Positions 4,102-62,112 of a DNA stretch of 64,000 bases are shown piece after piece. The stretch's first letter is position 1, and each line of letters begins with the position of its first letter. The notes below the pieces were generated by a model, which worked only from the letters and a program-made list of their open reading frames with translations, was not told the origin of the DNA and did not search any database. The translations under genes and the position numbers were made by a program. Location of the stretch: NCBI RefSeq assembly GCF_058153355.1, contig NZ_CM177019.1. The stretch is one strand, 5' to 3'.

Positions 4102-5022
4102 TCAGTAACGGATTTTCGGGTCGATAACCGCATATAGCACATCGACAATGGCATTAAACAAAATGGTTAACGCGCCAACCAGAATGGTCAGACTTAACAC
4201 TAAGGAATAGTCACGATTCAATGCGCCATTAACGAACAATTGCCCAATCCCCGGTAAACCATAAATGGTTTCGATGACCATAGAACCGGTAATAATGCCG
4301 ACAAATGCAGGGCCCATATAGGAGAGCACGGGTAACAGAGCAGGTTTTAATGCGTGACGTAAAATGATCCGCCGCATAGGTAACCCTTTCGCCCGGGCAG
4401 TACGAATAAAATTGGAGTGTAATACTTCAATCATAGAGCCACGGGTAATACGCGCAATACTGGCGATATAGGCGAGTGACAACGCCACCATTGGCAGTAT
4501 CATGAATTTAAGCGCACCACCATTCCAGCCACCGCCCGGCAGCCAATGCAAAATGATCGCAAATATCATGACTAATAATGGCGCAACCACAAAACTGGGG
4601 ATAACAACCCCGGTCATTGCCAGCCCCATCACGGTATAGTCCCATTTGGTGTTTTGTTTTAATGCTGCAATAACGCCAGCACTAACACCCAGTATTACCG
4701 CAAGGAAAAATGCTGCGGCTCCCAGTTTTGCTGAAACGGGAAAACTGGATGCAACTAGGTCGTTGACCGAATAATCTTTATATTTAAACGATGGACCGAA
4801 ATCGCCATGCGCCAGTTGTTTCAGGTAGCTGAAATACTGTGTCATGATCGGATCATTAAGATGATATTTCGCTTCGATATTGGCCATCACTTCTGGCGGT
4901 AAAGTACGTTCGCCGGTAAAAGGGCTTCCCGGCGCGAGGCGCATCATGAAGAACGAAATAGTAATAAGAATAAATAGCGTCGGAATCGCTTCCAGACAGC
5001 GACGTAGAATAAATTTTAACAT
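4102..5022 (-). CDS. oppB: oligopeptide ABC transporter permease OppB
   Basis: 306-aa ORF, hydrophobic, typical DppB/OppB-family N-terminus MLKFILRRCLEAIPTLFIL. Confidence 0.92.
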   Translation of the reverse strand: MLKFILRRCLEAIPTLFILITISFFMMRLAPGSPFTGERTLPPEVMANIEAKYHLNDPIMTQYFSYLKQLAHGDFGPSFKYKDYSVNDLVASSFPVSAKLGAAAFFLAVILGVSAGVIAALKQNTKWDYTVMGLAMTGVVIPSFVVAPLLVMIFAIILHWLPGGGWNGGALKFMILPMVALSLAYIASIARITRGSMIEVLHSNFIRTARAKGLPMRRIILRHALKPALLPVLSYMGPAFVGIITGSMVIETIYGLPGIGQLFVNGALNRDYSLVLSLTILVGALTILFNAIVDVLYAVIDPKIRY

Positions 5023-11316: not shown

Positions 11317-12742
11317 TAATGCCGATCAGTTAAGGATCAGTTGACCGATCCAGTGGCTGTGTAAGAATCCGGAAACGCTCACTTGTTTCCGGATTTTTTT
11401 ATGCACATTGGACAGGCTCTTGATCTGGTATCCCGTTACGATTCTCTGCGTAACCCACTGACTTCTCTGGGGGATTACCTCGACCCCGAACTCATCTCTC
11501 GTTGCCTTGCCGAATCAGGTACTGTAACGCTACGCAAGCGCCGTCTTCCCCTCGAAATGATGGTCTGGTGTATTGTTGGCATGGCGCTTGAGCGTAAAGA
11601 ACCTCTTCACCAGATTGTGAATCGCCTGGACATCATGCTGCCGGGCAATCGCCCCTTCGTTGCCCCCAGTGCCGTTATTCAGGCCCGCCAGCGCCTGGGA
11701 AGTGAGGCTGTCCGCCGCGTGTTCACGAAAACAGCGCAGCTCTGGCATAACGCCACGCCGCATCCGCACTGGTGCGGCCTGACCCTGCTGGCCATCGATG
11801 GTGTGTTCTGGCGCACACCGGATACACCAGAGAACGATGCAGCCTTCCCCCGCCAGACACATGCCGGGAACCCGGCGCTCTACCCGCAGGTCAAAATGGT
11901 CTGCCAGATGGAACTGACCAGCCATCTGCTGACGGCTGCAGCCTTCGGCACGATGAAGAACAGCGAAAATGAGCTTGCTGAGCAACTTATAGAACAAACC
12001 GGCGATAACACTCTGACGTTAATGGATAAAGGTTATTACTCACTGGGACTGTTAAATGCCTGGAGCCTGGCGGGAGAACACCGCCACTGGATGATACCTC
12101 TCAGAAAGGGAGCGCAATATGAAGAGATCAGAAAACTGGGTAAAGGCGATCATCTGGTGAAGCTGAAAACCAGCCCGCAGGCACGAAAAAAGTGGCCGGG
12201 ACTGGGAAATGAAGTGACAGCCCGCCTGCTGACCGTGACGCGCAAAGGAAAAGTCTGCCATCTGCTGACGTCGATGACGGACGCCATGCGCTTCCCCGGA
12301 GGAGAAATGGCGGATCTGTACAGTCATCGCTGGGAAATCGAACTGGGATACAGGGAGATAAAACAGACGATGCAACTGAGCAGGCTGACGCTGAGAAGTA
12401 AAAAGCCGGAGCTTGTGGAGCAAGAGCTGTGGGGTGTCTTACTGGCTTATAATCTGGTGAGATATCAGATGATTAAAATGGCGGAACATCTGAAAGGTTA
12501 CTGGCCGAATCAACTGAGTTTCTCAGAATCATGCGGAATGGTGATGAGAATGCTGATGACATTGCAGGGCGCTTCACCGGGACGTATACCGGAGCTGATG
12601 CGCGATCTTGCAAGTATGGGACAACTTGTGAAATTACCGACAAGAAGGGAAAGGGCCTTCCCGAGAGTGGTAAAGGAGAGGCCCTGGAAATACCCCACAG
12701 CCCCGAAAAAGAGCCAGTCAGTTGCTTAACTGACTGGCATTA
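11317..12742 (+). mobile_element. IS4 insertion sequence, complete (1426 bp)
   Basis: imperfect terminal inverted repeats TAATGCCGATCAGTTAAG (left) and TAATGCCAGTCAGTTAAG (reverse complement of right end), 16/18 identical; length 1426 bp; single transposase ORF; 11-bp direct repeats. Confidence 0.9.
11401..12729 (+). CDS. IS4-family DDE transposase
   Basis: 442-aa ORF from ATG 11401 (track ORF starts at alternative TTG 11383); C-terminal Y(2)R(3)E(6)K signature [15 protein letters not shown] typical of the IS4 family. Confidence 0.9.
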
Positions 12743-14792: not shown

Positions 14793-15701
14793 TTACTTCT
14801 TAATGCCCATCTCTTCTTCAAGCCAGGCTTTAAATTCCGTGCCAAGGGTGTTATGACGAATACCGTATTCAACGAAGGCCTGCATGTAACCTAATTTATT
14901 ACCGCAGTCATGGCTCTTCCCTTTCATATGATAGGCTTCCACCGTTTCTTTTTCGATCAGCATATCAATTGCGTCGGTGAGCTGAATTTCATCACCAGCA
15001 CCCGGAGGGGTTTTTGCCAGCAACGGCCAAATATCCGCGCTAAGAACGTAACGACCCACAATAGCGAGATTAGACGGCGCAACATCCGCTTTTGGTTTTT
15101 CAACCACGCCAACCATCGGTACGCTTTCACCCGGCGCTAATTCAACGCCTTTGCAATCCACAACGCCATATGCGGTCACATCAGCAACCGGTTCAACCAT
15201 GATCTGGCTATGACCCGTTTCATCAAAGCGGCGGATCATCTCTGCCAGGTTATCCTGTGACAAATCGGATTCATATTCATCCAGAATAACGTCAGGCAAA
15301 ATAACAGCCACAGGTTCATCACCCACTACCGGGTGAGCACACAATACCGCGTGTCCCAGGCCTTTCGCCAGCCCCTGACGAACTTGCATAATAGTCACGT
15401 GCGGCGGACAAATAGACTGCACTTCATCAAGCAGTTGACGTTTTACACGTTTTTCCAGCATTGCTTCCAGTTCAAAACTGGTATCAAAGTGGTTTTCAAT
15501 AGAGTTTTTAGATGAGTGAGTAACCAGCACAATTTCAGTAATGCCAGCCGCAATACATTCATTCACGACGTATTGAATTAATGGCTTATCGACAAGTGGC
15601 AACATCTCTTTCGGGATGGCTTTCGTCGCCGGCAACATCCTGGTTCCTAATCCCGCAACGGGGATAACGGCTTTTTTGACTTTCGTATTAATGGCAGCCA
15701 T
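14793..15701 (-). CDS. galU: UTP-glucose-1-phosphate uridylyltransferase
   Basis: 302-aa [38 protein letters not shown]... nucleotidyltransferase motif. Confidence 0.95.
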
Positions 15702-15902
15702 TTAAATTCTCCTGGACTGTTCGTGTTTTGAACGTGTTCATATTTCTGTATCGCATCCCAGTATATCAGCACCCCGAAGGGGCTAAGTTCTGAAAAGGAG
15801 GCGAGTTAGCATAATTAAGACAATTACTTATACGAATGGCGACGATAGTACCACCAGCCGACATTAGCAGGTAATGCAAATTTAGCCCGCGTTATCGTTT
15901 GC

Positions 15903-16916
15903 TCATTCTGCAGACAACATCAAGCGAAGCCGACCACCGGTTCCCCATATTTGGCATTGCCAGGCATCGCATCGCTGGCTCAATTGATTCAAATAAGCGT
16001 TACCTAAAGTGCCTAACGGAACACCATTACTGATTTGCACCTGGTGTTCGCCAGTATTTAACGTCGCATTCAGACCCGCAGAAACCAGAATGAGATTTTT
16101 CAGTTCGCGATGATAATAGCCAACTAATAGCGGAAACTGCCCCGGCAGATTGGCCTGACGGAGTAAATGGTTTACCTGCTTCAATAACGCGCCCAACTCT
16201 GGCAACCGTTGATTTTGATGTGCAAGCTGTTCCTGTAATAATCCGTTAAACAATGCGCGTAATAACAAGGCAGCAAGTACGCCATTATGTCCAGCTCTGG
16301 TGACATCAAGGCAATAAAATGCAAGATCGTTTTCCGAAAGTGCGGCAATATCAAGCACCAGGCCGGGTTTGTCCGCGGCAACCAATTGACGATAATTAAC
16401 CCGGCAATGGGAAATCACCTGCTGAACCGGCGGTTGCAATTCCTGTAATAATTTCGCCGCTGCGGCAGGGTTATCAACCATTGCATCCCAGTCGCGAAAA
16501 AGCCTCTCCTCTTCCTCAACGCGGGAATTAAACATGCTGGGATAGAGACAGGCAAAAACCATCTCGCGCAAGCGATTCAGATCTTTAACTGGTTTCAGCA
16601 AAACATCTTCAACGCCCAGACGTAACGCTTTGGCAATATCTGCCATATTTTCAGTGGCAGATATCACCAGAACCGGTGTCTGGTCACCTCTGTTGCGTAT
16701 ATGTTCCAGCAGTTTAAGCCCGTTCATTCGTGGCATCGCGATATCACATATCATCAGGTCTGGAGTGAAACCTCCCAGCAACTCAAGGGCATCCACCCCA
16801 TCAGCCGCCAGTACCGTTGTCGCTCCCAATGAGGAAAACCACGAATCCAGAAGCGAGCGAAATACCTGCTCATCTTCAACAATGAGAATCTGTTTTCCGA
16901 CCAATGGCTGCGTCAT
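15903..16916 (-). CDS. rssB: RpoS-degradation adaptor response regulator RssB
   Basis: 337-aa ORF with N-terminal receiver domain (ILIVEDEQVFRSLL, conserved Asp) and PP2C-like C-terminus. Confidence 0.9.
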   Translation of the reverse strand: MTQPLVGKQILIVEDEQVFRSLLDSWFSSLGATTVLAADGVDALELLGGFTPDLMICDIAMPRMNGLKLLEHIRNRGDQTPVLVISATENMADIAKALRLGVEDVLLKPVKDLNRLREMVFACLYPSMFNSRVEEEERLFRDWDAMVDNPAAAAKLLQELQPPVQQVISHCRVNYRQLVAADKPGLVLDIAALSENDLAFYCLDVTRAGHNGVLAALLLRALFNGLLQEQLAHQNQRLPELGALLKQVNHLLRQANLPGQFPLLVGYYHRELKNLILVSAGLNATLNTGEHQVQISNGVPLGTLGNAYLNQLSQRCDAWQCQIWGTGGRLRLMLSAE

Positions 16917-17007
16917 GTTCTCTCCCCTGACTGGCTTTACTCAATAGTGGCATGCTATTGCCACCTGCGCCTGTCAGAATTAACTTAAGTGTAGATAAAA
17001 ATTCTGG

Positions 17008-17913
17008 TCAAATGTTGGTGCGTACCAACGGCAAAAGTTCGTCCATTTTCTTTTCCACTGCCAGCTGCCCAGCCGCAATGGCAGCGTGCGCGCGATGGAA
17101 ATCAAGCGTAGATATTTGCGGGCAAACAGGTTGAATCAGAATATCGGGCGGATCACCTGCCATGCGGTTCCTTTTAAGGCGGTTCTCCAGCACCTGGATA
17201 GAAGTGGTCATAATCTCTGTTGCCGTTGGCGCTGTCACCGCCCGACGTGTCGTTATGCTGCCCAACCTTTCTTTCAGACGCGCATGCCACGGCAGAGAAT
17301 CACCATTCTCGCTATTTTCTTCACTGACATTAAAGGAGAGCAGATCTTGTTGCATCAAATGAGCATCGTGCTGCAGGTCGACCGCTATCACAATATCAGC
17401 ACCCAATGCACGCGTGAGCGAAATAGGAATTGGGTTAACTACTGCCCCATCAACCAGCCAGTAGCCGTTATGCGCAACGGGTGCCATTAGTCCTGGAATA
17501 CTGCATGATGCACGAATAGCAAGATGGAGATCGCCTTCAGTAAACCATAATTCGCGCCCAGTACTTAAATTGGTGGCAACAGCCGCGAAGCGACGGGAAC
17601 AATTTTCGATCTCTGTTTCCGGCATTATTTCGCGATATTGATTGAAGACACGCTCGCCGCGCAGTAACCCACCGCGCTGCCAGGAGAGATCCATCAGGCG
17701 TAAAACATCCCAATAACTGAAAGAGGTTACCCAATCTTCCAGCGCAGATAATCGATCGCATGCATAGGCCGCGCCCACCAGCGAACCAATTGAGCATCCT
17801 GCAACGATATCAATTTCAATACCCACTTTTTTTAGCGCATTAATAACGCCAATATGCGACCAACCTCTCGCCGCGCCAGATCCCAGCGCCAGCCCTATTT
17901 TTATCTTTCTCAT
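17008..17913 (-). CDS. rssA: patatin-like phospholipase RssA
   Basis: 301-aa ORF with GxGxxG (GSGAARG) and GxSxG (GCSIGS) patatin motifs; upstream of rssB. Confidence 0.9.
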   Translation of the reverse strand: MRKIKIGLALGSGAARGWSHIGVINALKKVGIEIDIVAGCSIGSLVGAAYACDRLSALEDWVTSFSYWDVLRLMDLSWQRGGLLRGERVFNQYREIMPETEIENCSRRFAAVATNLSTGRELWFTEGDLHLAIRASCSIPGLMAPVAHNGYWLVDGAVVNPIPISLTRALGADIVIAVDLQHDAHLMQQDLLSFNVSEENSENGDSLPWHARLKERLGSITTRRAVTAPTATEIMTTSIQVLENRLKRNRMAGDPPDILIQPVCPQISTLDFHRAHAAIAAGQLAVEKKMDELLPLVRTNI

Positions 17914-18025
17914 TATTCCCGCAAGATTCCCCTGGAATGCAATCGTAGCAACATCGCTACTGCTCGGTTAACATAGTGCTACTCAGGCGGTTAATACGCC
18001 GTTATTGTTTCCAGGGAGATTATTT

Positions 18026-18484
18026 GTGTCTCAGCTTTGTCCCTGTGGTAGTGCTGTCGAGTATAGCCTATGTTGCCACCCTTATGTGTCTGGTGAAAAG
18101 GTTGCACCTGATCCAGAACATCTCATGCGTTCGCGTTACTGCGCTTTTGTGATGCAAGACGCAGATTATTTAATAAAGACCTGGCATCCATCTTGTGGAG
18201 CGGCGGCGTTACGTGCCGAATTGATTGCCGGATTTGCGCATACTGAATGGTTGGGATTGACCGTATTTGAACATTGTTGGCAGGACGGCGACAATATCGG
18301 ATTTGTCAGTTTTGTTGCTCGATTTACCGAAGGTGGCAAAACAGGTGCAATAATTGAACGTTCGCGATTTTTGAAAGAAAACAGTCAATGGTACTATATT
18401 GACGGTACACGTCCGCAGTTTGGCCGCAACGATCCCTGCCCTTGTGGTTCAGGTAAAAAATTTAAAAAGTGCTGCGGCCAATAA
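18026..18484 (+). CDS. ychJ: SEC-C motif protein YchJ
   Basis: ORF 18005..18484; probable GTG start at 18026 after GGGAG; CPCGS near N-terminus and C-terminal [18 protein letters not shown] metal-binding motif. Confidence 0.8.
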
Positions 18485-18533
18485 TGGTTGACGGTACGGT
18501 TTAGCAAACACTCTCAACAAGGTTTTTCCAGCA

Positions 18534-19376
18534 ATGCATTCACTCCAACGTAAAGTTCTGCGTACTATTTGTCCGGACCAAAAAGGTCTGATCGCACGTA
18601 TTACCAATATTTGCTACAAGCACGAGTTAAATATCGTGCAGAACAATGAATTTGTTGATCACCGTACCGGGCGCTTTTTTATGCGCACGGAACTGGAAGG
18701 AATTTTTAATGATTCCACCCTGCTGGCGGATCTCGACAGCGCATTGCCAGAAGGCTCCGTACGTGAGCTGAATCCTGCCGGTCGTCGCCGGATAGTGATT
18801 CTGGTCACTAAAGAGGCGCATTGCCTTGGCGATTTGTTGATGAAAGCCAATTACGGCGGCCTGGATGTCGAAATCGCGGCAGTTATTGGTAACCACGATA
18901 CTTTACGTTCTCTGGTTGAGCGTTTTGATATTCCGTTTGAGCTGGTAAGTCATGAAGGATTAAGTCGCAACGAGCACGATCAAAAGATGGCGGATGCCAT
19001 TGATGCTTATCAGCCTGACTACGTGGTGCTGGCGAAGTATATGCGGGTATTAACGCCAGAATTTGTGGCACGCTTCCCGAATAAGATCATCAATATTCAC
19101 CATTCATTCCTGCCAGCGTTTATCGGCGCACGTCCTTATCACCAGGCCTATGAACGTGGCGTGAAGATTATTGGCGCAACCGCTCACTATGTGAATGACA
19201 ATCTGGACGAAGGTCCAATCATCATGCAGGACGTTATTCATGTCGATCATACCTACACAGCTGAAGATATGATGCGCGCAGGTCGTGACGTCGAGAAAAA
19301 CGTCTTAAGTCGCGCACTCTACAAAGTACTGGCGCAGCGCGTCTTTGTTTACGGTAATCGGACGATTATTCTTTAA
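18534..19376 (+). CDS. purU: formyltetrahydrofolate deformylase
   Basis: 280-aa ORF with N-terminal ACT domain and formyltransferase domain. Confidence 0.93.
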   Translation: MHSLQRKVLRTICPDQKGLIARITNICYKHELNIVQNNEFVDHRTGRFFMRTELEGIFNDSTLLADLDSALPEGSVRELNPAGRRRIVILVTKEAHCLGDLLMKANYGGLDVEIAAVIGNHDTLRSLVERFDIPFELVSHEGLSRNEHDQKMADAIDAYQPDYVVLAKYMRVLTPEFVARFPNKIINIHHSFLPAFIGARPYHQAYERGVKIIGATAHYVNDNLDEGPIIMQDVIHVDHTYTAEDMMRAGRDVEKNVLSRALYKVLAQRVFVYGNRTIIL

Positions 19377-19458
19377 TCGCCAGCAAAATAGAACTGGTTG
19401 CCTTTAATCCGTTACGGATGAAAATTACGCAACCAGTTCATTTTTCTCAACGTAACCC

Positions 19459-19494
19459 TTTACAGCGGCGTGTCATTTGATATGATGCGCCCCG
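19459..19494 (+). promoter_or_regulatory. tyrT promoter (-35 TTTACA, 16-bp spacer, -10 TATGAT, GC-rich discriminator GCGCCCCGC)
   Basis: consensus-like sigma70 hexamers about 45 bp upstream of the mature tRNA 5' end; GC-rich discriminator characteristic of stringently controlled stable-RNA promoters. Confidence 0.7.
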
Positions 19495-19536
19495 CTTCCC
19501 CACAAGGGAGCAGGCCAGTAAAAAGCATTACCCCGT

Positions 19537-19621
19537 GGTGGGGTTCCCGAGCGGCCAAAGGGAGCAGACTGTAAATCTTCCGTCATCGACTTCGAAGGTT
19601 CGAATCCTTCCCCCACCACCA
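19537..19621 (+). tRNA. tyrT: tRNA-Tyr (anticodon GUA), variant copy with G-to-T change in the 3' strand of the anticodon stem at 19579
   Basis: 85-nt sequence ending CCA; identical to the second copy except one base (UCUUC instead of UCUGC). Confidence 0.85.
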
Positions 19622-19655
19622 TCTCAAGCATTACATCAAAATTTGAATTATCCCT

Positions 19656-19740
<85 letters not shown>

Positions 19741-19985
19741 TCACTTTCAAAAACCCCTGTATTCTCCAACGAATCCGTAACTGAATATTCTGCCCATACG
19801 GGGAAGGATGAGAAGCTTCGACTAAGGTTCGACTCGAGCGCCAGCGAGAGAGCGTTGCCGCAGGCAACGACCCGTAGGGCGAAGCGCGCAGCGCTGAGTA
19901 ATCCTTCCCCCACCACCATCACTTTCAAAAACCCCTGTATTCTCCAACGAATCCGTAACTGAATATTCTGCCCATACGGGGAAGG

Positions 19986-20075
19986 ATGAGAAGCTTCGAC
20001 CAAGGTTCGACTCGAGCGCCAGCGAGAGAGCGTTGCCGCAGGCAACGACCCGTAGGGCGAAGCGCGCAGCGCTGA
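19986..20075 (+). CDS. tpr: protamine-like Arg-rich 29-aa peptide (tpr-type ORF, repeat unit 2)
   Basis: [38 protein letters not shown] inside the repeat unit. Confidence 0.45.
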
Positions 20076-20163
20076 GTAATCCTTCCCCCACCACCATCAC
20101 TTTCAAAAGTTCCTGAAATCCCCAACAAATCCGCAATTAAATATTCTGCCCATACGGGGAAGG

Positions 20164-20253
20164 ATGAGAAACTTCGACCAAGGTTCGACTCGAGCGCCAG
20201 CGAGAGAGCGTTGCCGCAGGCAACGACCCGTAGGGCGAAGCGCGCAGCGCTGA
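20164..20253 (+). CDS. tpr: protamine-like Arg-rich 29-aa peptide (tpr-type ORF, repeat unit 3)
   Basis: [32 protein letters not shown]; same frame and position within the repeat unit. Confidence 0.4.
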
Positions 20254-20341
20254 GTAATCCTTCCCCCACCACCATCACTTTCAAAAGTTCCTGAAATCCC
20301 CAACAAATCCGCAATTAAATATTCTGCCCATACGGGGAAGG

Positions 20342-20431
20342 ATGAGAAACTTCGACCAAGGTTCGACTCGAGCGCCAGCGAGAGAGCGTTGCCGCAGGCA
20401 ACGACCCGTAGGGCGAAGCGCGCAGCGCTGA
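20342..20431 (+). CDS. tpr: protamine-like Arg-rich 29-aa peptide (tpr-type ORF, repeat unit 4)
   Basis: identical to the unit 3 ORF. Confidence 0.4.
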
Positions 20432-20620
20432 GTAATCCTTCCCCCACCACCATCACACCTTTAAATACTCAAAACCTGTTACTTCAAGCTAATTTGCCCC
20501 GTGGCACCGCGTTTTCCGGACCTACAATATCCTCCCCTGTAGGTCAGATAAGCGAATCACTCCGCACCGTGCCCATAAAAAAACCCCGCCGAAGCAGGGT
20601 CTATGTGAACTAAAATTCGC

Positions 20621-21298
20621 TTAGTGGCGAGCACGCACCAACTGATATTTCCGTGTCAGATACTCCACCGGTACGCTCCAGATGTGCACCAGACGCGAGA
20701 ACGGGAACAGCAGGAATAACGTCATCCCCAGCACCAGGTGCAGACGGAAGATAAACGCCACACCATCAAGATGCTGGGACGCACCACCGTGGAAGGTCAC
20801 CACCGACTGTGCCCAGCCAACCAGTTTCATCATCTCGCTACCGTCCATATGCTGGGCGGAGAACGGAATGGTCAGTAGGCCCAGTGCGCACTGGATAACG
20901 AGTAGCGACAGGATCAGGATGTCCGCCCCAGTAGTCGTTGCTCGTACGCGTGGGCTGGTCAAACGACGCTTCAGCAACAGCACGCCGCCAATCAGGCACA
21001 GCACGCCGCTGGCACCACCAGCAAACATCGCCATTTTCTGTTTCACTTCAATTGGCAGCCACGCTTCATACATCCAGTGCGGCGTCAGCATACCGAAGAA
21101 GTGGCCGACAAAAATCCCCAGAATTCCGATATGGAACAGGTTCGACGCCAGGTTCATCCCTTTGCGATCCAGCATCTGGCTGGATGCCGCGCGCCAGGTG
21201 TACTGCCCGTAGTCATAGCGCAGCCAGCTACCAATCAGGAAGACCGCCCCGGCTATGTACGGGTAGATATCAAAGAAGAACATATTCAGGAATTGCAT
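20621..21298 (-). CDS. narI: respiratory nitrate reductase A gamma subunit (cytochrome b)
   Basis: 225-aa hydrophobic ORF; last gene of narGHJI. Confidence 0.95.
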
Positions 21299-22008
21299 TA
21301 GTGCTGTCCTCCGGTGGTGATATTCAGATATTGCGGCGCGACGGCACCGGCAAAGCGACGCTGATGAGCAGTGATTGCTGAATCACCGCAGCCTTTGTCA
21401 GCAAAGAATTTAACCTGCTCTTCTTCCCAGACGGCATCCAGCGCCTGTGGCGTATCGTCGCGCGCTTCATCAGCAATTTTTTCCGCCACTTTGTCGCTGT
21501 CGATAGCGGTATTCGCCAGTTTCAGCAGCAGATCAAACAGCACGGCATAACGGCTTTCACGTTGTTGCAGACGCGCGCTCAGCAATGCCAGAATCGGCGC
21601 AATATCTTTCAAACCCTCCACTGCTTCGCTTTGCGGAAGCTGCGCCAGATACTCCAGATACAGTGGCAAATGGTCTGGCAATTCGCGGCTGTTTAACTGC
21701 AAACCGTGCTGCTCATACTGTGCCAGCAGGTCCACCATCGCCTGACCGCGATCGCGGGATTCCCCGTGAACGTGTTCAAACAGCAACAGCGACGTTGCGC
21801 GACCACGATCGAACAGTTCGCTGTACTGCGCCTGGGCATCGAGCGGATCCATCGTCGTTAAATCGCGCAGGAAAATGCCCAGCGCATGGGCATCTTCTTT
21901 CGACAGATTTTTCGACGCAGCAATCGCCTCAAACATCTCTTGTTGATGCTGCCATAAGGCAGCATCCGGATATTCAAGGAGACGCGATACAATCACGAGT
22001 TCGATCAT
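21298..22008 (-). CDS. narJ: nitrate reductase assembly chaperone NarJ
   Basis: 236-aa [29 protein letters not shown]...; overlaps narI start by 1 bp. Confidence 0.95.
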
Positions 22009-23543
22009 GGGTGCGGCTCCGTTTTACTGGTCACGTCGATGGCATCGATACGACGGCTGTTAAACAGATTGAATTTGGTATCTGAACCGTGGCAGCCATC
22101 ACCAAAGGTAAAGCCGCAGCCATTTTTCTCCGGGAAGGCTTCCCGCGCCAGTTCACGATGACTGCTCGGCACCACAAAGCGATCTTCGTAGTTAGCAATC
22201 GCCAGATAACGGTACATCTCCTGTGCCTGCGCTTCTATCAGGCCGACCTCTTCCAGCGCACGGGTATCAGCTTTACCGTCAACGGTTTCAGCACGTTTGT
22301 AATGACGCATCGCCAACATACGTTTCAGTGCGCGCAGTACCGGTTGGGTGTCGCCTGCGGTCAGCAGATTCGCCAGATACTGTACCGGAATACGCAGGCT
22401 TTCGACGTCTGGCAGAATGCCATTGCTGCCCAGCTCACCCGCATCTGCCGCAGACTGAATCGGCGACAGAGGTGGCACGTACCAGACCATCGGCAGTGTG
22501 CGATATTCCGGATGCAGCGGCAGCGCCAGTTTCCATTCCATTGCCATTTTATAAACCGGCGACTGCTGTGCGGCTTCAATAACGCTCAGCGGAATACCGT
22601 CTTTAATCGCCTGCTCGATGACTTTCGGATCGTTCGGATCGAGGAACACGTCCAGCTGACGCTGGTAGAGATCTTTCTCGTTCTCGGTGCTGGCTGCACG
22701 TTCAATCGCGTCGGCATCGTACAGCAGCACGCCAAGATAACGGATACGACCGACACAGGTTTCAGAGCACACCGTCGGCTGACCGGCTTCAATACGCGGA
22801 TAGCAGAAGATGCACTTCTCAGACTTACCGCTCTTCCAGTTGAAGTAGATTTTTTTGTACGGGCATCCGGTGATGCACATACGCCAGCCACGGCATTTGT
22901 CCTGGTCGATCAGGACGATGCCATCTTCTTCACGCTTGTAAATCGCACCGCTCGGGCAGGTCGCCACACATGCCGGGTTCAGGCAGTGTTCGCACAGGCG
23001 TGGCAAATACATCATGAAGGTGTTTTCGAACTGGCTATACATCGCCTTCTGGATGTTGTCGAAGTTCTTGTCTTTCGCCAGTTTGTCAAACTCGCCGCCC
23101 AGGTCATCTTCCCAGTTTGGCCCTTTTTCGATTTTCGCCATCCGTTCGCCGGTAATCAGCGAACGTGGACGGGCAATCGGCTGCGATTTGCTGCCTTCCG
23201 GCGCGGTATGCAGGTTCTGATAGTCAAAATCGAACGGCTCGTAATAATCGTCGATCCCCGGCAGATGCGGGTTAGCGAAAATTTTACCCAGCAGCATGGC
23301 GCGGTTACCCATGCGCGGTTGCAGTTTGCCGTTGATTTTACGGATCCAGCCGCCTTTGTATTTTTCCTGGTTTTCCCAGTCTGTCGGGAAGCCCTGGCCC
23401 GGCTTGGTTTCCACGTTGTTGAACCACGCGTATTCCACGCCTTCACGGCTGGTCCAGACGTTTTTACAGGTCACTGAACAGGTGTGGCAACCGATGCACT
23501 TATCCAGATTCAGCACCATGCCGACTTGTGAACGAATTTTCAT
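22005..23543 (-). CDS. narH: respiratory nitrate reductase A beta subunit (Fe-S)
   Basis: 512-aa ORF with multiple ferredoxin-type Cys clusters (CIGCHTCSVTC, CEHCLNPACVATCP). Confidence 0.97.
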   Translation of the reverse strand: MKIRSQVGMVLNLDKCIGCHTCSVTCKNVWTSREGVEYAWFNNVETKPGQGFPTDWENQEKYKGGWIRKINGKLQPRMGNRAMLLGKIFANPHLPGIDDYYEPFDFDYQNLHTAPEGSKSQPIARPRSLITGERMAKIEKGPNWEDDLGGEFDKLAKDKNFDNIQKAMYSQFENTFMMYLPRLCEHCLNPACVATCPSGAIYKREEDGIVLIDQDKCRGWRMCITGCPYKKIYFNWKSGKSEKCIFCYPRIEAGQPTVCSETCVGRIRYLGVLLYDADAIERAASTENEKDLYQRQLDVFLDPNDPKVIEQAIKDGIPLSVIEAAQQSPVYKMAMEWKLALPLHPEYRTLPMVWYVPPLSPIQSAADAGELGSNGILPDVESLRIPVQYLANLLTAGDTQPVLRALKRMLAMRHYKRAETVDGKADTRALEEVGLIEAQAQEMYRYLAIANYEDRFVVPSSHRELAREAFPEKNGCGFTFGDGCHGSDTKFNLFNSRRIDAIDVTSKTEPHP

Positions 23544-29405: not shown

Positions 29406-31202
29406 ATGCTTAAACGTTGTCTCTCTCCGCTCACCCTGGTTAATCAGGTTGCGCTTATTGTGTTGCTTTCTACTGCTATTGGACTGGCGGGGATGGCGGT
29501 TTCTGGCTGGCTGGTACAAGGCGTTCAGGGCAGCGCCCATGCGATCAACAAAGCGGGATCGCTGCGCATGCAAAGTTACCGTCTGTTGGCGGCAGTGCCA
29601 TTAAGCGAGAAAGACAAGCCCTTAATTAAAGAGATGGAACAAACGGCATTTAGCGCCGAGTTAACCCGAGCAGCAGAACGAGACGGACAACTGGCGCAAC
29701 TACAGGGTTTACAAGATTACTGGCGTAATGAGCTGATCCCTGCGCTGCTGCGTGCACAAAACCGCAAAACGGTGTCAGCGGATGTCAGCCAGTTTGTTGC
29801 CGGGCTTGATCAACTGGTATCTGGTTTTGACCGCACCACGGAAATGCGCATTGAGACAGTGGTGCTGGTCCATCGGGTAATGGCGGTATTTATGGCACTT
29901 TTACTGGTGTTCACTATTATCTGGTTGCGGGCGCGACTGCTACAACCGTGGCGGCAGTTGTTGGCAATGGCGAGTGCCGTCAGCCATCGCGATTTTACCC
30001 AACGCGCGAACATCAGCGGGCGCAACGAAATGGCTATGCTTGGAACTGCGTTGAACAATATGTCTGCAGAACTGGCGGAAAGTTACGCCGTACTTGAGCA
30101 GCGGGTTCAGGAGAAAACCGCCGGGCTGGAACATAAAAATCAGATCCTCTCTTTTTTATGGCAGGCCAACCGCCGTTTGCATTCCCGCGCCCCGCTGTGT
30201 GAACGCCTGTCACCTGTACTCAACGGCTTACAGAATTTAACCCTGCTACGTGATATCGAACTGCGGGTGTATGACACTGATGATGAAGAGAATCATCAGG
30301 AGTTTACCTGCCAGCCAGATATGACCTGCGATGATAAAGGCTGTCAGCTCTGCCCGCGCGGTGTACTCCCCGTTGGCGATCGCGGCACAACCCTGAAGTG
30401 GCGGCTGGCTGACTCTCATACGCAGTACGGTATTTTGCTGGCAACCCTGCCGCAGGGGCGTCATCTTAGTCATGATCAACAACAACTGGTGGATACCCTG
30501 GTTGAACAACTCACCGCCACGCTTGCGCTGGATCGCCATCAGGAACGTCAGCAACAGTTGATCGTGATGGAAGAGCGTGCCACCATTGCGCGCGAACTGC
30601 ATGATTCTATTGCCCAATCTCTCTCTTGCATGAAGATGCAGGTGAGTTGTTTACAGATGCAGGGCGATGCGCTGCCAGAAAGCAGCCGCGAACTGTTAAG
30701 TCAGATCCGTAACGAACTGAATGCATCCTGGGCGCAGTTGCGTGAATTGCTCACCACATTCCGCTTGCAGCTCACCGAGCCTGGATTACGTCCGGCGCTG
30801 GAGGCGAGTTGCGAAGAGTACAGCGCCAGGTTTGGCTTCCCGGTGAAGCTGGATTATCAATTGCCGCCTCGTCTGGTGCCTTCGCATCAGGCAATCCATC
30901 TGTTGCAAATTGCCCGTGAGGCATTAAGTAACGCCCTCAAACATTCGCAAGCGAGTGAGGTCGTGGTGACAGTGGCGCAAAACGATAATCAGGTCAAACT
31001 GACCGTCCAGGATAACGGCTGCGGCGTGCCTGAAAATGCCATCCGCAGCAATCACTACGGCATGATAATAATGCGCGACCGTGCGCAAAGTTTACGGGGC
31101 GATTGCCGCGTCCGCCGTCGTGAATCAGGTGGCACCGAAGTGGTGGTCACCTTTATTCCCGAAAAAACTTTCACAGACGTCCAAGGAGATACCCATGAGT
31201 AA
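29406..31202 (+). CDS. narX: nitrate/nitrite sensor histidine kinase NarX
   Basis: 598-aa ORF with N-terminal transmembrane/periplasmic sensing region and C-terminal HATPase-like region. Confidence 0.95.
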
Positions 31203-36275: not shown

Positions 36276-36567
36276 CAGTTATATCTCCTCCGATGACGAA
36301 AATCGGGGGAGATAATATAAATTCCTGCTTATTGTATTTCTTCATACTACCTGAACAGGTCGTTAATCAGAATTGCGAGCCTGTACCACAACCTGCACTA
36401 AACCACTGCAACAGCTGTTGAAAAGCCGGAATGTACTCTTTATTGCAAACATTTCAGGGATGAAGTGAAGATGAATTGAGACGTAATATCCACACCAAGC
36501 CGGCGTTATCCGGTGAGGCGCAATGTTGCGGGGGCTTTATCCCTGGTGGCATTGGTTGCTGGAAAGA

Positions 36568-36633
36568 GAAAACCCCCGCACGTTGAGAGGTAAAACCTGA
36601 CAACAGAACGGGGGCTAATCTTGAACCATCAAC
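36568..36633 (-). ncRNA. rdl: Rdl-type antisense RNA (antitoxin of ldr), copy 1, approximate coordinates
   Basis: placed by the known ldr/rdl geometry (rdl lies antisense in the ldr 5' leader, about 48 bp upstream of the ldr start); region contains a GC-rich hairpin CCCCCGCACG...; no ORF. Confidence 0.45.
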
Positions 36634-37102: not shown

Positions 37103-37168
37103 AGAAAACCCCCGCACGTTGAGAGGTACAACCTGACAACAGAACGGGGGCTAATCTTGAAACCAGAC
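37103..37168 (-). ncRNA. rdl: Rdl-type antisense RNA, copy 2, approximate coordinates
   Basis: same position within LDR unit 2 as copy 1. Confidence 0.45.
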
Positions 37169-53596: not shown

Positions 53597-55516
53597 TCAT
53601 ACCCGGCGCTTAAACTGCCCTGCATCAATGCCATGTTGCTTCATTTTCCGCCACAGCGTAGTGCGGCCGATTCCAAGTAAAGCCGACATTTCCTGAATGC
53701 GACCGCCTGTGACCTGGGCTGCGTTAATAATTGCCTCTTTTTCAACTTCCGCAAATGACAGACTGGTGGAAAGGCGAGTGGCGCTGACATCATCTGTCGC
53801 CTGCTCGGTAAACAGATGTTCAGGCAAATCACTGACGCGAATGCGCCCGTTATCACTACTCAGAGCAAGATTCTCGATGACGCTGTAAAGTTCAAAATCG
53901 TTGCCTGGCCATGCACAAGAAACCAGGCGAGCGAGGGCATCGTCATCAATTTTCAGACGCGTAGAGAAGCGTTTTTCAAGACTGCGTAATTTGTTATTCA
54001 CCAGCGCCGGAATGCTGCCACGCCGCATACGCAGAGGCGGGATGGTAATTTCAAATGCATGCAGCGCGTAATACAGCTGGCGACTAAAGCGATTTTGTTC
54101 CACCAGCATTGCCAGGTCCGCGGTCGTTGTGGCAATCACTTTGACATCAATTGGTATTAAACGCCGCGCATCCAGTCGCGTGATAACACCCTGCTTGATA
54201 ACCTGAAGCAAAGCAGACTGTAACTCCACCGCCAGATATTCAATCTTTTCAAGAAACAGCGTGCCGCCGTGCGCCAGTTCCAGTCGACTCAGACGACCAT
54301 TTTCATTGTCCGTGCGATCGCCGCCAATAAATTCTTCCGCCAGCGCCGCATCACCATATAACTCACAATTGACGGCGATGTAGGGACCTGCTGCACGCTC
54401 ACTTTCATTATGAATTGCCTGACTTAGCAGTGCCTTGCCTACGCCCTCTTCGCCACAAAGCAAAACAGGAAAGCTACTACGCGCCGCCTGGCGGCCAAAA
54501 TGAATCAAGCGGCGAGTTTGCGGATCGTCCTGTGGCATATGAGCGAAGGTATGGCTGACTTTTCCCAATTGACTGGTCATCAACTGCCGCATCTGTTCCA
54601 CGGGATGGAGCAACAAAATAAAGCTGGTTCCCTGCGTTTCTATTATCGGTTTAAGGGTTATCACAGCATCAATAAACTGGTGCTGACTTTCAAAGGTTGC
54701 TTCTACGTGTTTGAGCGGATGTGCCTGTTTTATTGCTTGTTGCAATACAGCGGGTAACGTTAAGAGTTCAGTGATCGCCCTTCCCTGACTTGCCGTCGCG
54801 TCAAGGCGCAAGACTCGCGCCGCCTGGGCATTGATAAATTGCAAATTACCCTGCTCGTCCCAGCTAATCACGCCATCGTCCATACTTTCCAGCAAGGCGT
54901 TAAGTTGATTTAAATGTCGGTTTGTTTCAGCCAGTAAATTGTCGGTCAGCAGTAAGTTTCCTACCTCGCGTGCAATTGCCAGCGTCAACGGCAAATCAGC
55001 TGCGGTGGTTTGCTTAACCGGACACGCCAAAGCTATCGTTCCCGTTAATCGGCCCTTGCTGTCAAACAGTGGCGTTGCACAAAATGCCCAATCCCAGAGC
55101 GCCTGTTTGAAATGTTGATCGGCCATCGTTTTCACTGCCTGACCAGAAATAGCCGCTAACGATAGCGCACAGGTACCAATAATTCCCTCTGCGCAATACG
55201 TGCCGTCATTGAATCCCAGGACACTAAGCTGGTGCAGCGTTTGTGGATCACCAAAACGACTAAGGATGCAGGCGGTTTCATCAAGGATGAACAGTCCGCA
55301 CGCCCGCGATTCCATATATTCCCAGGCATCTTCCAGCGCAGCCTGCCCGAGCGTCAGCATCGCTTTCTTACGCCGATAGATAGAAGCAAATGTCACGCCC
55401 TGGGCCTGGTGCGGTACGCTCCATGTCTCCCGTTTCATCAGTTTATTGCATCGCTCCCAGGAGGCTGCAATTAAGGGAGATATGCCCCGTTCATCGTTGT
55501 TAAAAGCGCCACTCAT
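53597..55516 (-). CDS. dhaR: dha operon transcriptional activator DhaR
   Basis: ORF 53597..55597; ATG at 55516 gives 639 aa MSGAFNNDERGISPL...; AAA+ central domain (GEEGVGK) and C-terminal Fis-type HTH. Confidence 0.9.
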   Translation of the reverse strand: MSGAFNNDERGISPLIAASWERCNKLMKRETWSVPHQAQGVTFASIYRRKKAMLTLGQAALEDAWEYMESRACGLFILDETACILSRFGDPQTLHQLSVLGFNDGTYCAEGIIGTCALSLAAISGQAVKTMADQHFKQALWDWAFCATPLFDSKGRLTGTIALACPVKQTTAADLPLTLAIAREVGNLLLTDNLLAETNRHLNQLNALLESMDDGVISWDEQGNLQFINAQAARVLRLDATASQGRAITELLTLPAVLQQAIKQAHPLKHVEATFESQHQFIDAVITLKPIIETQGTSFILLLHPVEQMRQLMTSQLGKVSHTFAHMPQDDPQTRRLIHFGRQAARSSFPVLLCGEEGVGKALLSQAIHNESERAAGPYIAVNCELYGDAALAEEFIGGDRTDNENGRLSRLELAHGGTLFLEKIEYLAVELQSALLQVIKQGVITRLDARRLIPIDVKVIATTTADLAMLVEQNRFSRQLYYALHAFEITIPPLRMRRGSIPALVNNKLRSLEKRFSTRLKIDDDALARLVSCAWPGNDFELYSVIENLALSSDNGRIRVSDLPEHLFTEQATDDVSATRLSTSLSFAEVEKEAIINAAQVTGGRIQEMSALLGIGRTTLWRKMKQHGIDAGQFKRRV

Positions 55517-59643: not shown

Positions 59644-59673
59644 GTAAGCGGCTCGCCAGAACCGTATTGATAT

Positions 59674-61245
59674 TTACTGAGAGCTCAGATCAACTTTCCA
59701 GGGCAACAGATCGCGTACCCGGTTTGCCGGCCAGTCCTGGATATGTTCAATGACGTAACGCAGCCACTTTTCTGGCTCCACATTGTTCAGACGGCATGTG
59801 CCGATCAGCGAGTACAACACCGCAGCATGTTCACCACCGCTGTCAGAACCCGCGAAGAGCCAGTTTTTCCGGCCTACGGCCACTCCCCGTAAGGCGTTCT
59901 CTGCGATGTTGTTGTCGATTTCCACCCAGCCATTACTGCAGTACACGTTCAGTGCATCCCACTGTTTCAGCAGGTATGCGAACGCTTTTGCCGTGTCCGA
60001 GTGACGCGACAGTGTTTTCATCTGTTGCTGTATCCAGTCATACAGTGACTGCATCAGTGGCGCGGCTCTGGCTTTTCTTGCCGCCAGACGCTGTTCTGCT
60101 GAACAGCCCCGGACCTCTGCCTCGATGGCATACAGTTCACCGATACGCTGCAGGGCTTCCGTGGTGATGTCGGTGGGCACTCTTGCATGCACATCGTGGA
60201 TTTTTCTCCGGGCATGAGCCATACATGCGGCTTCCGTTATTCTGCCGGATTCGTACAACGCCCGGTAACCACCGTAAGCATCGGCCTGAAGCACTCCGCT
60301 GTAACCGGCCAGATGATTCTGTGGATGGATACCTTTCCGGTCCGGGCTGTACGCGAACCAGACCGCCGGAGGCATTTCCGAACCGGCGTTACGGTCATCA
60401 CGAACGTAGACCCACAGCCGGGCAGTCCTTGTTTTACCGCTGCCCGGCTCCTGGACCGGAACGGGGATATCATCGGCATGGACTTTACCGGGCATCAGCA
60501 CATACTGGCGCAGGATGTCATACAGCGGTTCCAGCAGTTCAGCAACAGCACCTGTCCAGCGCCCCAGTGTGGCACGGCTCAGCTCCACGCCCTGACGACG
60601 GTATATTTCTGACTGGCGGTATAACGGCAGATGGTCTGCATATTTTCCAGCGACAACATGGGCCAGAAGCCCCGCTCCGGCATAACTGCGTGCAATGGGT
60701 TTTGAAGGCACCGGAGCCTGCACGATATGGTCGCACCGGCAACAGGCCAGTTTCGGACGTTGTGTTTCGATAACCTTAAAGGCGCTGCTGATAAGCTCCA
60801 GTTGCTCTGACACATCACATCCCAGAGAACTGAGTTCGCCACCACAGGCCGGGCAGCATTCCTCTTCCGGACGGATGACCCGGGTTTCACGGGGAAGTGA
60901 GGCAGGTAACGGTTTACGGGCTGAAGACTGGCGCAGGGGAGATGGCAGTACCGGGTCATATTGCTCACCCAGCGTTTCCGCCATTTCTTCCTGAAGAGCG
61001 CTGATTCGCTCCTGTGCTTCCTGTATCTGCCGTTCGGTTTTTGCACGAAGTTTTTCTGAGCTTTTACCGAACTGCATGCGCTGCAGTTTTGCAACCAGCG
61101 CCTTCAGCCGGTTGATTTCGGAAGCATAAGCCGCCACCCGCTGTGAGAGCAGGCGGTTGTATTTCGCCATCTGGCGGATGGTGTCCTGTTGCGTCTGCAA
61201 CAGTGCCCGCAGGCGGGCATTCTCATGAGCAAGTGAGGTGTCCAT
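59674..61245 (-). CDS. IS66-family transposase (TnpC/orf3)
   Basis: 523-aa ORF with N-terminal coiled-coil/leucine zipper, CxxC...CxxC zinc-finger-like motif (CCPACGGEL...ACCRCDH) and DDE region. Confidence 0.9.
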
Positions 61246-61264
61246 ATCCTCACTTTACAACGGG

Positions 61265-61612
61265 TTATATGCGGATGCCAGCGCGTTCCGTTCGTTTCGG
61301 GTGTTTCCAGTCGATGCCCTCAAGAAGCATGGATAACTGGGCCGGAGTAAGGTGCACCTTGCCGTCACGGGTGACCGGCCAGACGAAGCGGCCCCGCTCC
61401 AGGCGTCTGGTGAAGAGGCACAGTCCGTCACTGTCAGCCCACAACACTTTTATCTGGTCACCCCGGCGTCCGCGGAAGATGAACAGATGCCCGGAGAACG
61501 GGTCATCCTTCAGGACGTTCTGAACTTTTGAGGCCAGGCCGTTAAAGCCATTTCGCATATCGGTGATACCTGCAACCAGCCAGATACGCGAACCTGCAGG
61601 GAGAGATATCAC
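61265..61612 (-). CDS. IS66 Orf2 (TnpB) accessory protein
   Basis: 115-aa ORF MISLPAGSRIWLVAGITDMRNGFNGLASKV... typical of IS66 orf2. Confidence 0.85.
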   Translation of the reverse strand: MISLPAGSRIWLVAGITDMRNGFNGLASKVQNVLKDDPFSGHLFIFRGRRGDQIKVLWADSDGLCLFTRRLERGRFVWPVTRDGKVHLTPAQLSMLLEGIDWKHPKRTERAGIRI

Positions 61613-62037
61613 CGTCTCAGCTCCTGTATAAGCAAGGACAGCAGATTTTCATTCACTGCCCCGTTCAACCGAAGGGTGCCGTTTCTGAACGTAATCTCAC
61701 AGGAGATGCTGTGTATTTCCGGTGTTACTGACGGTCTTGCGGTCAGTGGCTCATTAGCCGGAGCAGTTGGGAGTTGGGCATCAATAGTGACAGGAATTAA
61801 CTGAGATTCTCTGCCTGATTCTGATGATGGCAATTTTATCTTCCCCTGCCGCCATTTCTGACGCCATTTGAACAACAGATTGGCATTAATACCATTGTCC
61901 AGGGCCAGTCTGGAAATTGAAACACCTGGCTGGAATGATGCTTCTATGAGTCGTTGTTTGAATTCAGGAGGATAATTCAGGCACCCTTTAGGCCTTCCCG
62001 GAGAGGCATTTTTTTGTATATCTGACATTTTTATCAC
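61609..62037 (-). CDS. IS66 Orf1 (TnpA) HTH accessory protein
   Basis: 142-aa ORF; ATGA overlap with orf2 typical of IS66-family translational coupling. Confidence 0.8.
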   Translation of the reverse strand: MIKMSDIQKNASPGRPKGCLNYPPEFKQRLIEASFQPGVSISRLALDNGINANLLFKWRQKWRQGKIKLPSSESGRESQLIPVTIDAQLPTAPANEPLTARPSVTPEIHSISCEITFRNGTLRLNGAVNENLLSLLIQELRR

Positions 62038-62112
62038 CCACTATTAATTTAGTGGTGGATACTTTGTCCAAAGCATCGGGAATTTGCCAGACGGTCCTGA
62101 TAAGACGCTTAC

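Follow-up and report, generated by a model that had tools for sequence, protein, structure and literature searches.

The first of the two tandem tRNA-Tyr genes in this stretch of DNA differs from the second at one base, and the question is whether that base is a real mutation and, if so, what it does to a tRNA that is otherwise ordinary. The whole stretch that was analysed, referred to here as the window, is 64,000 nucleotides long. Megablast against 5,426 complete E. coli genomes, together with the RefSeq annotation of the best matches, identifies it as a segment of the E. coli chromosome with the order rssB-rssA-ychJ-purU, two tRNA-Tyr genes, four RtT repeats and narIJHG. ARAGORN finds only two tRNA genes in the 64 kb, and both are tRNA-Tyr with the anticodon GTA.

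Copy 1, the promoter-proximal gene (tyrT in K-12 naming), lies at 19537–19621 on the plus strand and carries the change, G42U. Copy 2 (tyrV in K-12 naming) lies at 19656–19740 on the same strand and has the normal sequence; both genes are called by ARAGORN and by Rfam RF00005. The 34-nt spacer between them (19622–19655, plus strand) is identical in GCA_043012465.1, a close relative of the window, and in the strain EC42405. Upstream, at 19459–19486 on the plus strand, the promoter of the operon consists of TTTACA, a 16-nt spacer and TATGAT, followed by the GC-rich GCGCCCCGC; a promoter scan scores it at 10 of 12 matches, with TG ahead of the -10 hexamer. We take this to be the classical tyrT promoter, and its sequence is unchanged among the window, GCA_043012465.1 and EC42405. 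The operon continues downstream with four tandem RtT repeats (19787–20452, plus strand; Rfam RF00391, 133–134 bits each), whose units at 19787–19918, 19965–20096, 20143–20274 and 20321–20452 follow a 178-bp period. Each repeat terminates in the 3' end sequence of tRNA-Tyr, and their equivalents in EC42405 are annotated by RefSeq as 'RtT sRNA, processed from tyrT transcript'. The number of repeats differs among relatives (one in JNE23-011, four in EC42405), and short-read contigs of the window's lineage break at them.

Base-by-base comparison of the two genes shows a single difference in 85 nt, at window position 19579 (plus strand), which is T in copy 1 but G in copy 2 and in the other tRNA-Tyr genes examined. 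Copy 1 is thus the normal tRNA-Tyr gene at 84 of 85 positions. The variant base is U42 of the tRNA (linear position 43). It pairs with C28 (linear position 29; window 19565, plus strand), which is unchanged, and the two form Sprinzl pair 28:42, the second pair of the 5-bp anticodon stem. This pair is C-G in copy 2 and C.U in copy 1, while the remaining four pairs of the stem are standard. The anticodon loop, CUGUAAA, is the same in both copies, with GUA in a 7-nt loop flanked by U33 and A37. The sequence-only reading of this DNA had reported a one-base difference at 19579 that replaces C-G by C.U in the anticodon stem and leaves the GUA anticodon intact; the base comparison bears out the first statement, and the listing of stem pairs together with cmscan bears out the second.

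Scoring both copies with Infernal, which that reading had proposed as a check, gives the lower score to the variant. Against RF00005, whose gathering score is 29, copy 1 reaches 47.6 bits and copy 2 reaches 53.4 bits, a drop of 5.8 bits with both copies above the threshold. The only non-standard pair flagged by cmscan is 28:42, in copy 1, and all pairs of copy 2 are standard. According to cmscan, the variable region of copy 1 contains an 11-nt insertion, corresponding to a long variable arm, and the 3' end of the gene (...CCACC-A-CCA) retains the discriminator A73 and the encoded CCA. Its acceptor, D and T arms, leader, promoter and anticodon are all intact and there is no second lesion, so that copy 1 has the features of a tRNA-Tyr gene that we looked for, except five standard pairs in the anticodon stem. 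We considered whether copy 1 is a tRNA pseudogene and rejected this, as the gene has one substitution, is of full length, keeps its promoter and scores above threshold. A nonsense suppressor of the supF/su3 type, which would have CUA, UUA or UCA, was likewise rejected, as the anticodon is GTA.

How rare is the allele? No gene identical to the variant was found in 5,425 complete E. coli genomes with 15,757 tRNA-Tyr places (5,425 of the 5,426 genomes matched in each of these searches, even with the universal tRNA-Tyr gene as query). With copy 1 as query, the best identity in all 5,441 matching complete-genome records is 98.8% (84/85). Among the fetched loci that cover 19579, 31 have G and T occurs only in L034, which is of the same lineage as the window. 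The closest sequences at the locus come from EC42405 and three other strains, at 99.8% identity over a 421-bp query (one mismatch); in the alignment with EC42405, the nearest outgroup, there is one mismatch in 418 bp, with G at the variant site. A compensated A28:U42 allele was also absent from the complete E. coli genomes. The possibility that T is a common polymorphism, raised in the sequence-only reading, is contradicted by these counts, since the allele occurs in none of the 5,425 complete genomes and is confined to the window and its close relative GCA_043012465.1. The comparison of tyrT across related genomes that had been suggested gives the same picture, with G in EC42405 and the 31 fetched loci and T in GCA_043012465.1.

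Searches beyond complete E. coli genomes point in the same direction. A 39-mer across the site, GGGAGCAGACTGTAAATCTTCCGTCATCGACTTCGAAGG, has no match in 100,044 GTDB species representatives, in a search run without a positive control for the normal allele. A 19-mer across the site has five GTDB matches (one in Gluconobacter and four in Acinetobacter), none of which is a tRNA gene. The 39-mer and a 22-mer have no match in JGI metagenomes, again without a normal-allele positive control, and there is no exact variant match in the phage collection or in the plasmid collection that we searched. In Salmonella and Klebsiella records of the plasmid collection, the gene differs from the variant only at the variant base, where it has G. 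Taken together, these sequence comparisons show G42 to be strongly conserved, across genera. Exact-protein look-ups with PurU, NarJ and AdhE returned 30 loci, none with the variant; these proteins are too conserved to serve as lineage markers (13,000–94,000 blocks each). A partial spurious open reading frame over the tRNA region, looked up as a lineage marker, is not on record.

Other single-base variants of tyrT/tyrV do exist in public assemblies. In a tally of 58 tRNA-Tyr genes from 44 loci, which includes the variant copy of L034, two of the 57 genes outside the lineage carry one. A14C, at position 4121 (plus strand) of L003, an ENA metagenome scaffold, alters the conserved A14. C76T, at position 20938 (plus strand) of L027 (GCA_049393445.1), gives a G.U pair in the acceptor stem.

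A base seen in one assembly, in a gene that is repeated (two copies here, a median of three per genome), could be an error of sequencing, assembly or consensus, as repeats are error-prone in assemblies, and the sequence-only reading had kept this option. Repeat collapse could not have produced T, however, because no other copy has T. More directly, GCA_043012465.1 has a contig, DAXYJU010000129.1, that matches window positions 15526–19933 at 100%, including the T of copy 1 and the G of copy 2. GCA_043012465.1 is an independent short-read assembly and the only other assembly in which T was seen directly. The YchJ allele of the window is found on four contigs, DAXYJU010000129.1 among them. The NarG allele is lineage-specific and is found on five contigs; the short-read contigs end at narI or at the RtT repeats and do not contain tyrT. 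Logan assemblies of SRR28786219 and SRR8656992 fall in the same lineage as the window.

GCA_043012465.1 is not simply a second copy of the same genome. Aligned over 40,246 bp, its other contigs and the window disagree at three sites. At 21377, the G of the window is ancestral, as 31 other loci agree, and the relative has T, which changes NarJ (A211E). At 29732, the window has G while the relative and JNE23-011 have A, so that the window is probably the derived one, judging from this single outgroup. At 54665, the A of the window is derived; four other loci have C. As each carries its own derived alleles, the window and GCA_043012465.1 are distinct genomes; as both nevertheless have T in the first copy and G in the second, the mutation is therefore real and older than their split. 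We regard an error at 19579 as effectively refuted by this closely related yet distinct and independently assembled genome. The comparisons indicate that T at 19579 is a genuine mutation inherited within a small E. coli clade, and that the U42 allele is derived and has a single origin.

What could the mismatch do to the tRNA? We folded both sequences with ViennaRNA, which here treats the RNA as unmodified and leaves out tertiary contacts and Mg2+; the values below are upper bounds on the real damage. The canonical cloverleaf has an energy of -30.3 kcal/mol with G and -23.6 kcal/mol with T, a predicted loss of about 6.7 kcal/mol in the variant. The minimum-free-energy structure of the G copy is a cloverleaf (-31.7 kcal/mol) and that of the T copy is not (-28.0 kcal/mol). 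Predicted pair probabilities in the anticodon stem are 0.82–0.89 for the G copy and 0.08 or less for the T copy, and the isolated anticodon stem-loop has about -4.1 to -4.3 kcal/mol with G and 0 with T. The anticodon stem of the variant is thus predicted to be mostly open. An alternative helix between the freed UCUUC and the T-stem strand GAAGG was considered as the dominant competitor and rejected, as its probability of about 0.08 makes it a minor effect. Real tRNAs tolerate some stem mismatches, which tempers the predicted loss of stability. Reduced stability or processing, one of the consequences suggested in the sequence-only reading, stands in part: what speaks for it is computation and the analogy with supF and tRNA quality control.

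We argue that U42 probably takes away part of the function of a redundant gene, and that the allele is tolerated and would be drifting in a small clade. G to T at tRNA position 42 would have arisen once, in the promoter-proximal gene. The U42 copy is likely to be transcribed, because the promoter, the leader, the GUA anticodon and the encoded CCA are kept. Its transcript, lacking C28-G42, would have an internal C.U beside the terminal pair of a 5-bp stem, and folding predicts a largely open stem. Less mature tRNA could then come from this copy, as poorly folded precursors would be misprocessed and removed by poly(A)-dependent quality control, and/or the U42 tRNA could perform worse on the ribosome. 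The loss would be buffered by the normal neighbour of copy 1 in the operon, which supplies the same tRNA-Tyr, and by tyrU, which we assume from K-12 to be a further source of tRNA-Tyr elsewhere in the genome, outside the window. That tyrV (and tyrU) make the same tRNA-Tyr would explain why the U42 allele is tolerated. The allele may be slightly deleterious or nearly neutral and may have drifted in one lineage, where gene conversion from the neighbouring copy would not yet have erased it.

Published work on the same tRNA and on tRNA turnover is consistent with this proposal. In supF, which is this tRNA with a CUA anticodon, substitutions at 74 of 85 mature positions detectably impair function (PMC9584611, citing Kraemer and Seidman 1989), and mutations at central positions of a stem typically abolish only part of it (PMC7510118). 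In E. coli, tRNA precursors that are unstable receive poly(A) tails and are then degraded by exonucleases (PMC5824355, citing Li et al. 2002). We found no published record or measurement of the exact G42U substitution, supF mutation spectra included.

How small the cost would be is suggested by the history of the allele. It persisted while about three SNPs per 40 kb accumulated, which argues that the cost of U42 is small. The same persistence is equally compatible with a fully silent change. In supF, the variant site presumably corresponds to position 141 of pZ189, or position 103 in the numbering of the Kamiya laboratory.

Two other readings place the effect of U42 on either side of partial loss. 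It is possible, but unlikely, that the change is a silent polymorphism, with tertiary structure, Mg2+ and modifications holding the arm so that maturation, charging and decoding are essentially normal. The allele was kept while at least three other substitutions arose between the two genomes that carry it; its 47.6 bits are well over the gathering threshold of 29; mutations at central stem positions of supF impair only partially (PMC7510118); and public assemblies contain further single-base variants of tyrT/tyrV, namely A14C in L003 and C76T in L027. However, G42 is invariant in 15,757 E. coli tRNA-Tyr genes and in the Salmonella and Klebsiella copies, an invariance that argues for purifying selection on pair 28:42. 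The predicted loss of 6.7 kcal/mol with near-complete opening of the stem is also large, and most mature positions of supF are phenotypically sensitive (PMC9584611). At the other extreme, copy 1 could have lost its function completely, as a transcribed pseudogene in effect, with a product that is fully degraded or unusable. That the anticodon stem essentially never forms in silico (0.08 or less) and that the minimum-free-energy structure is not a cloverleaf would fit this, as would the existence in E. coli of quality control for unstable tRNA precursors (PMC5824355). We consider complete loss quite improbable, as the promoter, the acceptor, D and T arms, the anticodon and CCA are intact with no second lesion, and central stem substitutions in supF are published as partial rather than null (PMC7510118).

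It is also conceivable that the allele is adaptive, either because a loosened stem alters decoding (near-cognate read-through of UAA/UAG, or miscoding) or because it makes copy 1 a poor substrate of a nuclease that acts on tRNA-Tyr, which would spare part of the pool when a toxin or phage attacks. Pairs of the anticodon stem, 27:43 among them, affect how accurately a tRNA decodes. The allele was kept in more than one genome, and there is a circumstantial precedent for the nuclease: the PtuAB of retron-Eco7 targets and depletes tRNA-Tyr, and phages counter it with a tRNA-Tyr of their own (PMC11555353). Against this, the allele has one origin and does not recur in the 5,425 complete genomes, the 100,044 species representatives or the metagenomes searched; the clade is very small, with the YchJ allele on four contigs and the NarG allele on five; and one altered copy of three would not protect a cell when the nuclease depletes the rest. 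We therefore give the adaptive reading very little weight. In its explicit form, that U42 was selected because a residual tRNA-Tyr pool would survive an attack of the PtuAB type or by colicin, or because the near-cognate GUA tRNA would allow low-level read-through of UAA/UAG, it seems scarcely credible. Resistance to colicin E5 was rejected as an explanation, since this colicin acts through recognition of the anticodon loop and has tRNA-His, tRNA-Asn and tRNA-Asp as further targets.

Comparison with known systems helps to place the allele of partial function that we propose. Relative to the E. coli tyrT-tyrV operon between purU and narI, the locus, the gene order, the promoter, the spacer and the RtT repeats are the same here, copy 2 has the standard sequence throughout, and copy 1 departs from it at one of 85 positions. 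The difference is that the promoter-proximal copy has U42 instead of G42, which breaks pair 28:42, a state found in none of the 5,425 complete genomes. The nearest precedents in kind are the laboratory stem-mismatch mutants of su3/supF, in which one substitution in the same tRNA backbone creates a mismatch in a stem, as here; A31 is a classical anticodon-stem mutant of this tyrosine suppressor tRNA. Those mutants were selected in a suppressor with a CUA anticodon, on phage or plasmids, whereas the allele in the window is natural and chromosomal, has the wild-type GUA anticodon and is inherited in a wild lineage. By analogy, a destabilised U42 precursor would be an expected substrate of bacterial RNA quality control by poly(A) polymerase with PNPase/RNase R (PMC5824355). 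The published case cited there (Li et al. 2002) concerned another tRNA and another mutation.

U42 is a new point allele of the well-known tyrT-tyrV-RtT operon, a real, rare and probably mildly damaging variant of an ordinary gene. If it is hypomorphic, it would illustrate in nature how a damaging mutation in one tRNA gene is buffered by the further copies, and how long such a lesion can last with an intact template beside it, until gene conversion or selection clears it. As the U42 and G42 genes share one operon and one promoter, the main use of the pair would be as a natural internal control for allele-resolved tRNA sequencing, by which the effect of a single anticodon-stem mismatch on maturation and charging could be followed in vivo. 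Otherwise, our understanding of tRNA-Tyr, the tyrT operon and translation in E. coli is unchanged, and the allele is a minor curiosity.

We would like to point out several observations on the surroundings of the operon. Relatedness shifts sharply at the tRNA/RtT locus, between 15900–19376 and 19377–23543. On the purU side, identity to ordinary E. coli is 99–100%; for narI, narJ and narH, identity to fetched loci outside the lineage is only 95–97.6%, and the best 24-kb match among complete genomes is 98.4%. The pattern of identities suggests a recombination junction at the repeats. A different downstream arrangement of the tRNA locus is seen in the metagenome scaffold L003 (3844–6843), where genes for fatty-acid desaturase, hydroxylase and PAP2 come after purU in the place of narIJH.

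Mobile elements and repeats are found further away in the window. At 11365–12729, between adhE and tdk, lies an inserted open reading frame for a transposase of the IS4 family (NCBIfam NF033592, E = 9e-91); an IS4-family transposase is found at the same place in JNE23-011, and most other loci have none. An insertion of about 2.5 kb at 59644–62112, with a transposase reading frame of the IS66 family on the minus strand (59674–61245; NF033517, E = 9e-144), disrupts the trehalase gene adjoining dhaM, which is intact (565 aa) in two other loci (L041 and L042), and short-read contigs of the lineage end at this insertion. Two matches to the antitoxin RNA rdlD, of 83.6 and 90.1 bits, lie on the minus strand at 36567–36632 and 37103–37168, in a region of tandem ldr/rdl toxin-antitoxin repeats, where Ldr_toxin reading frames are called in the contig of the relative.
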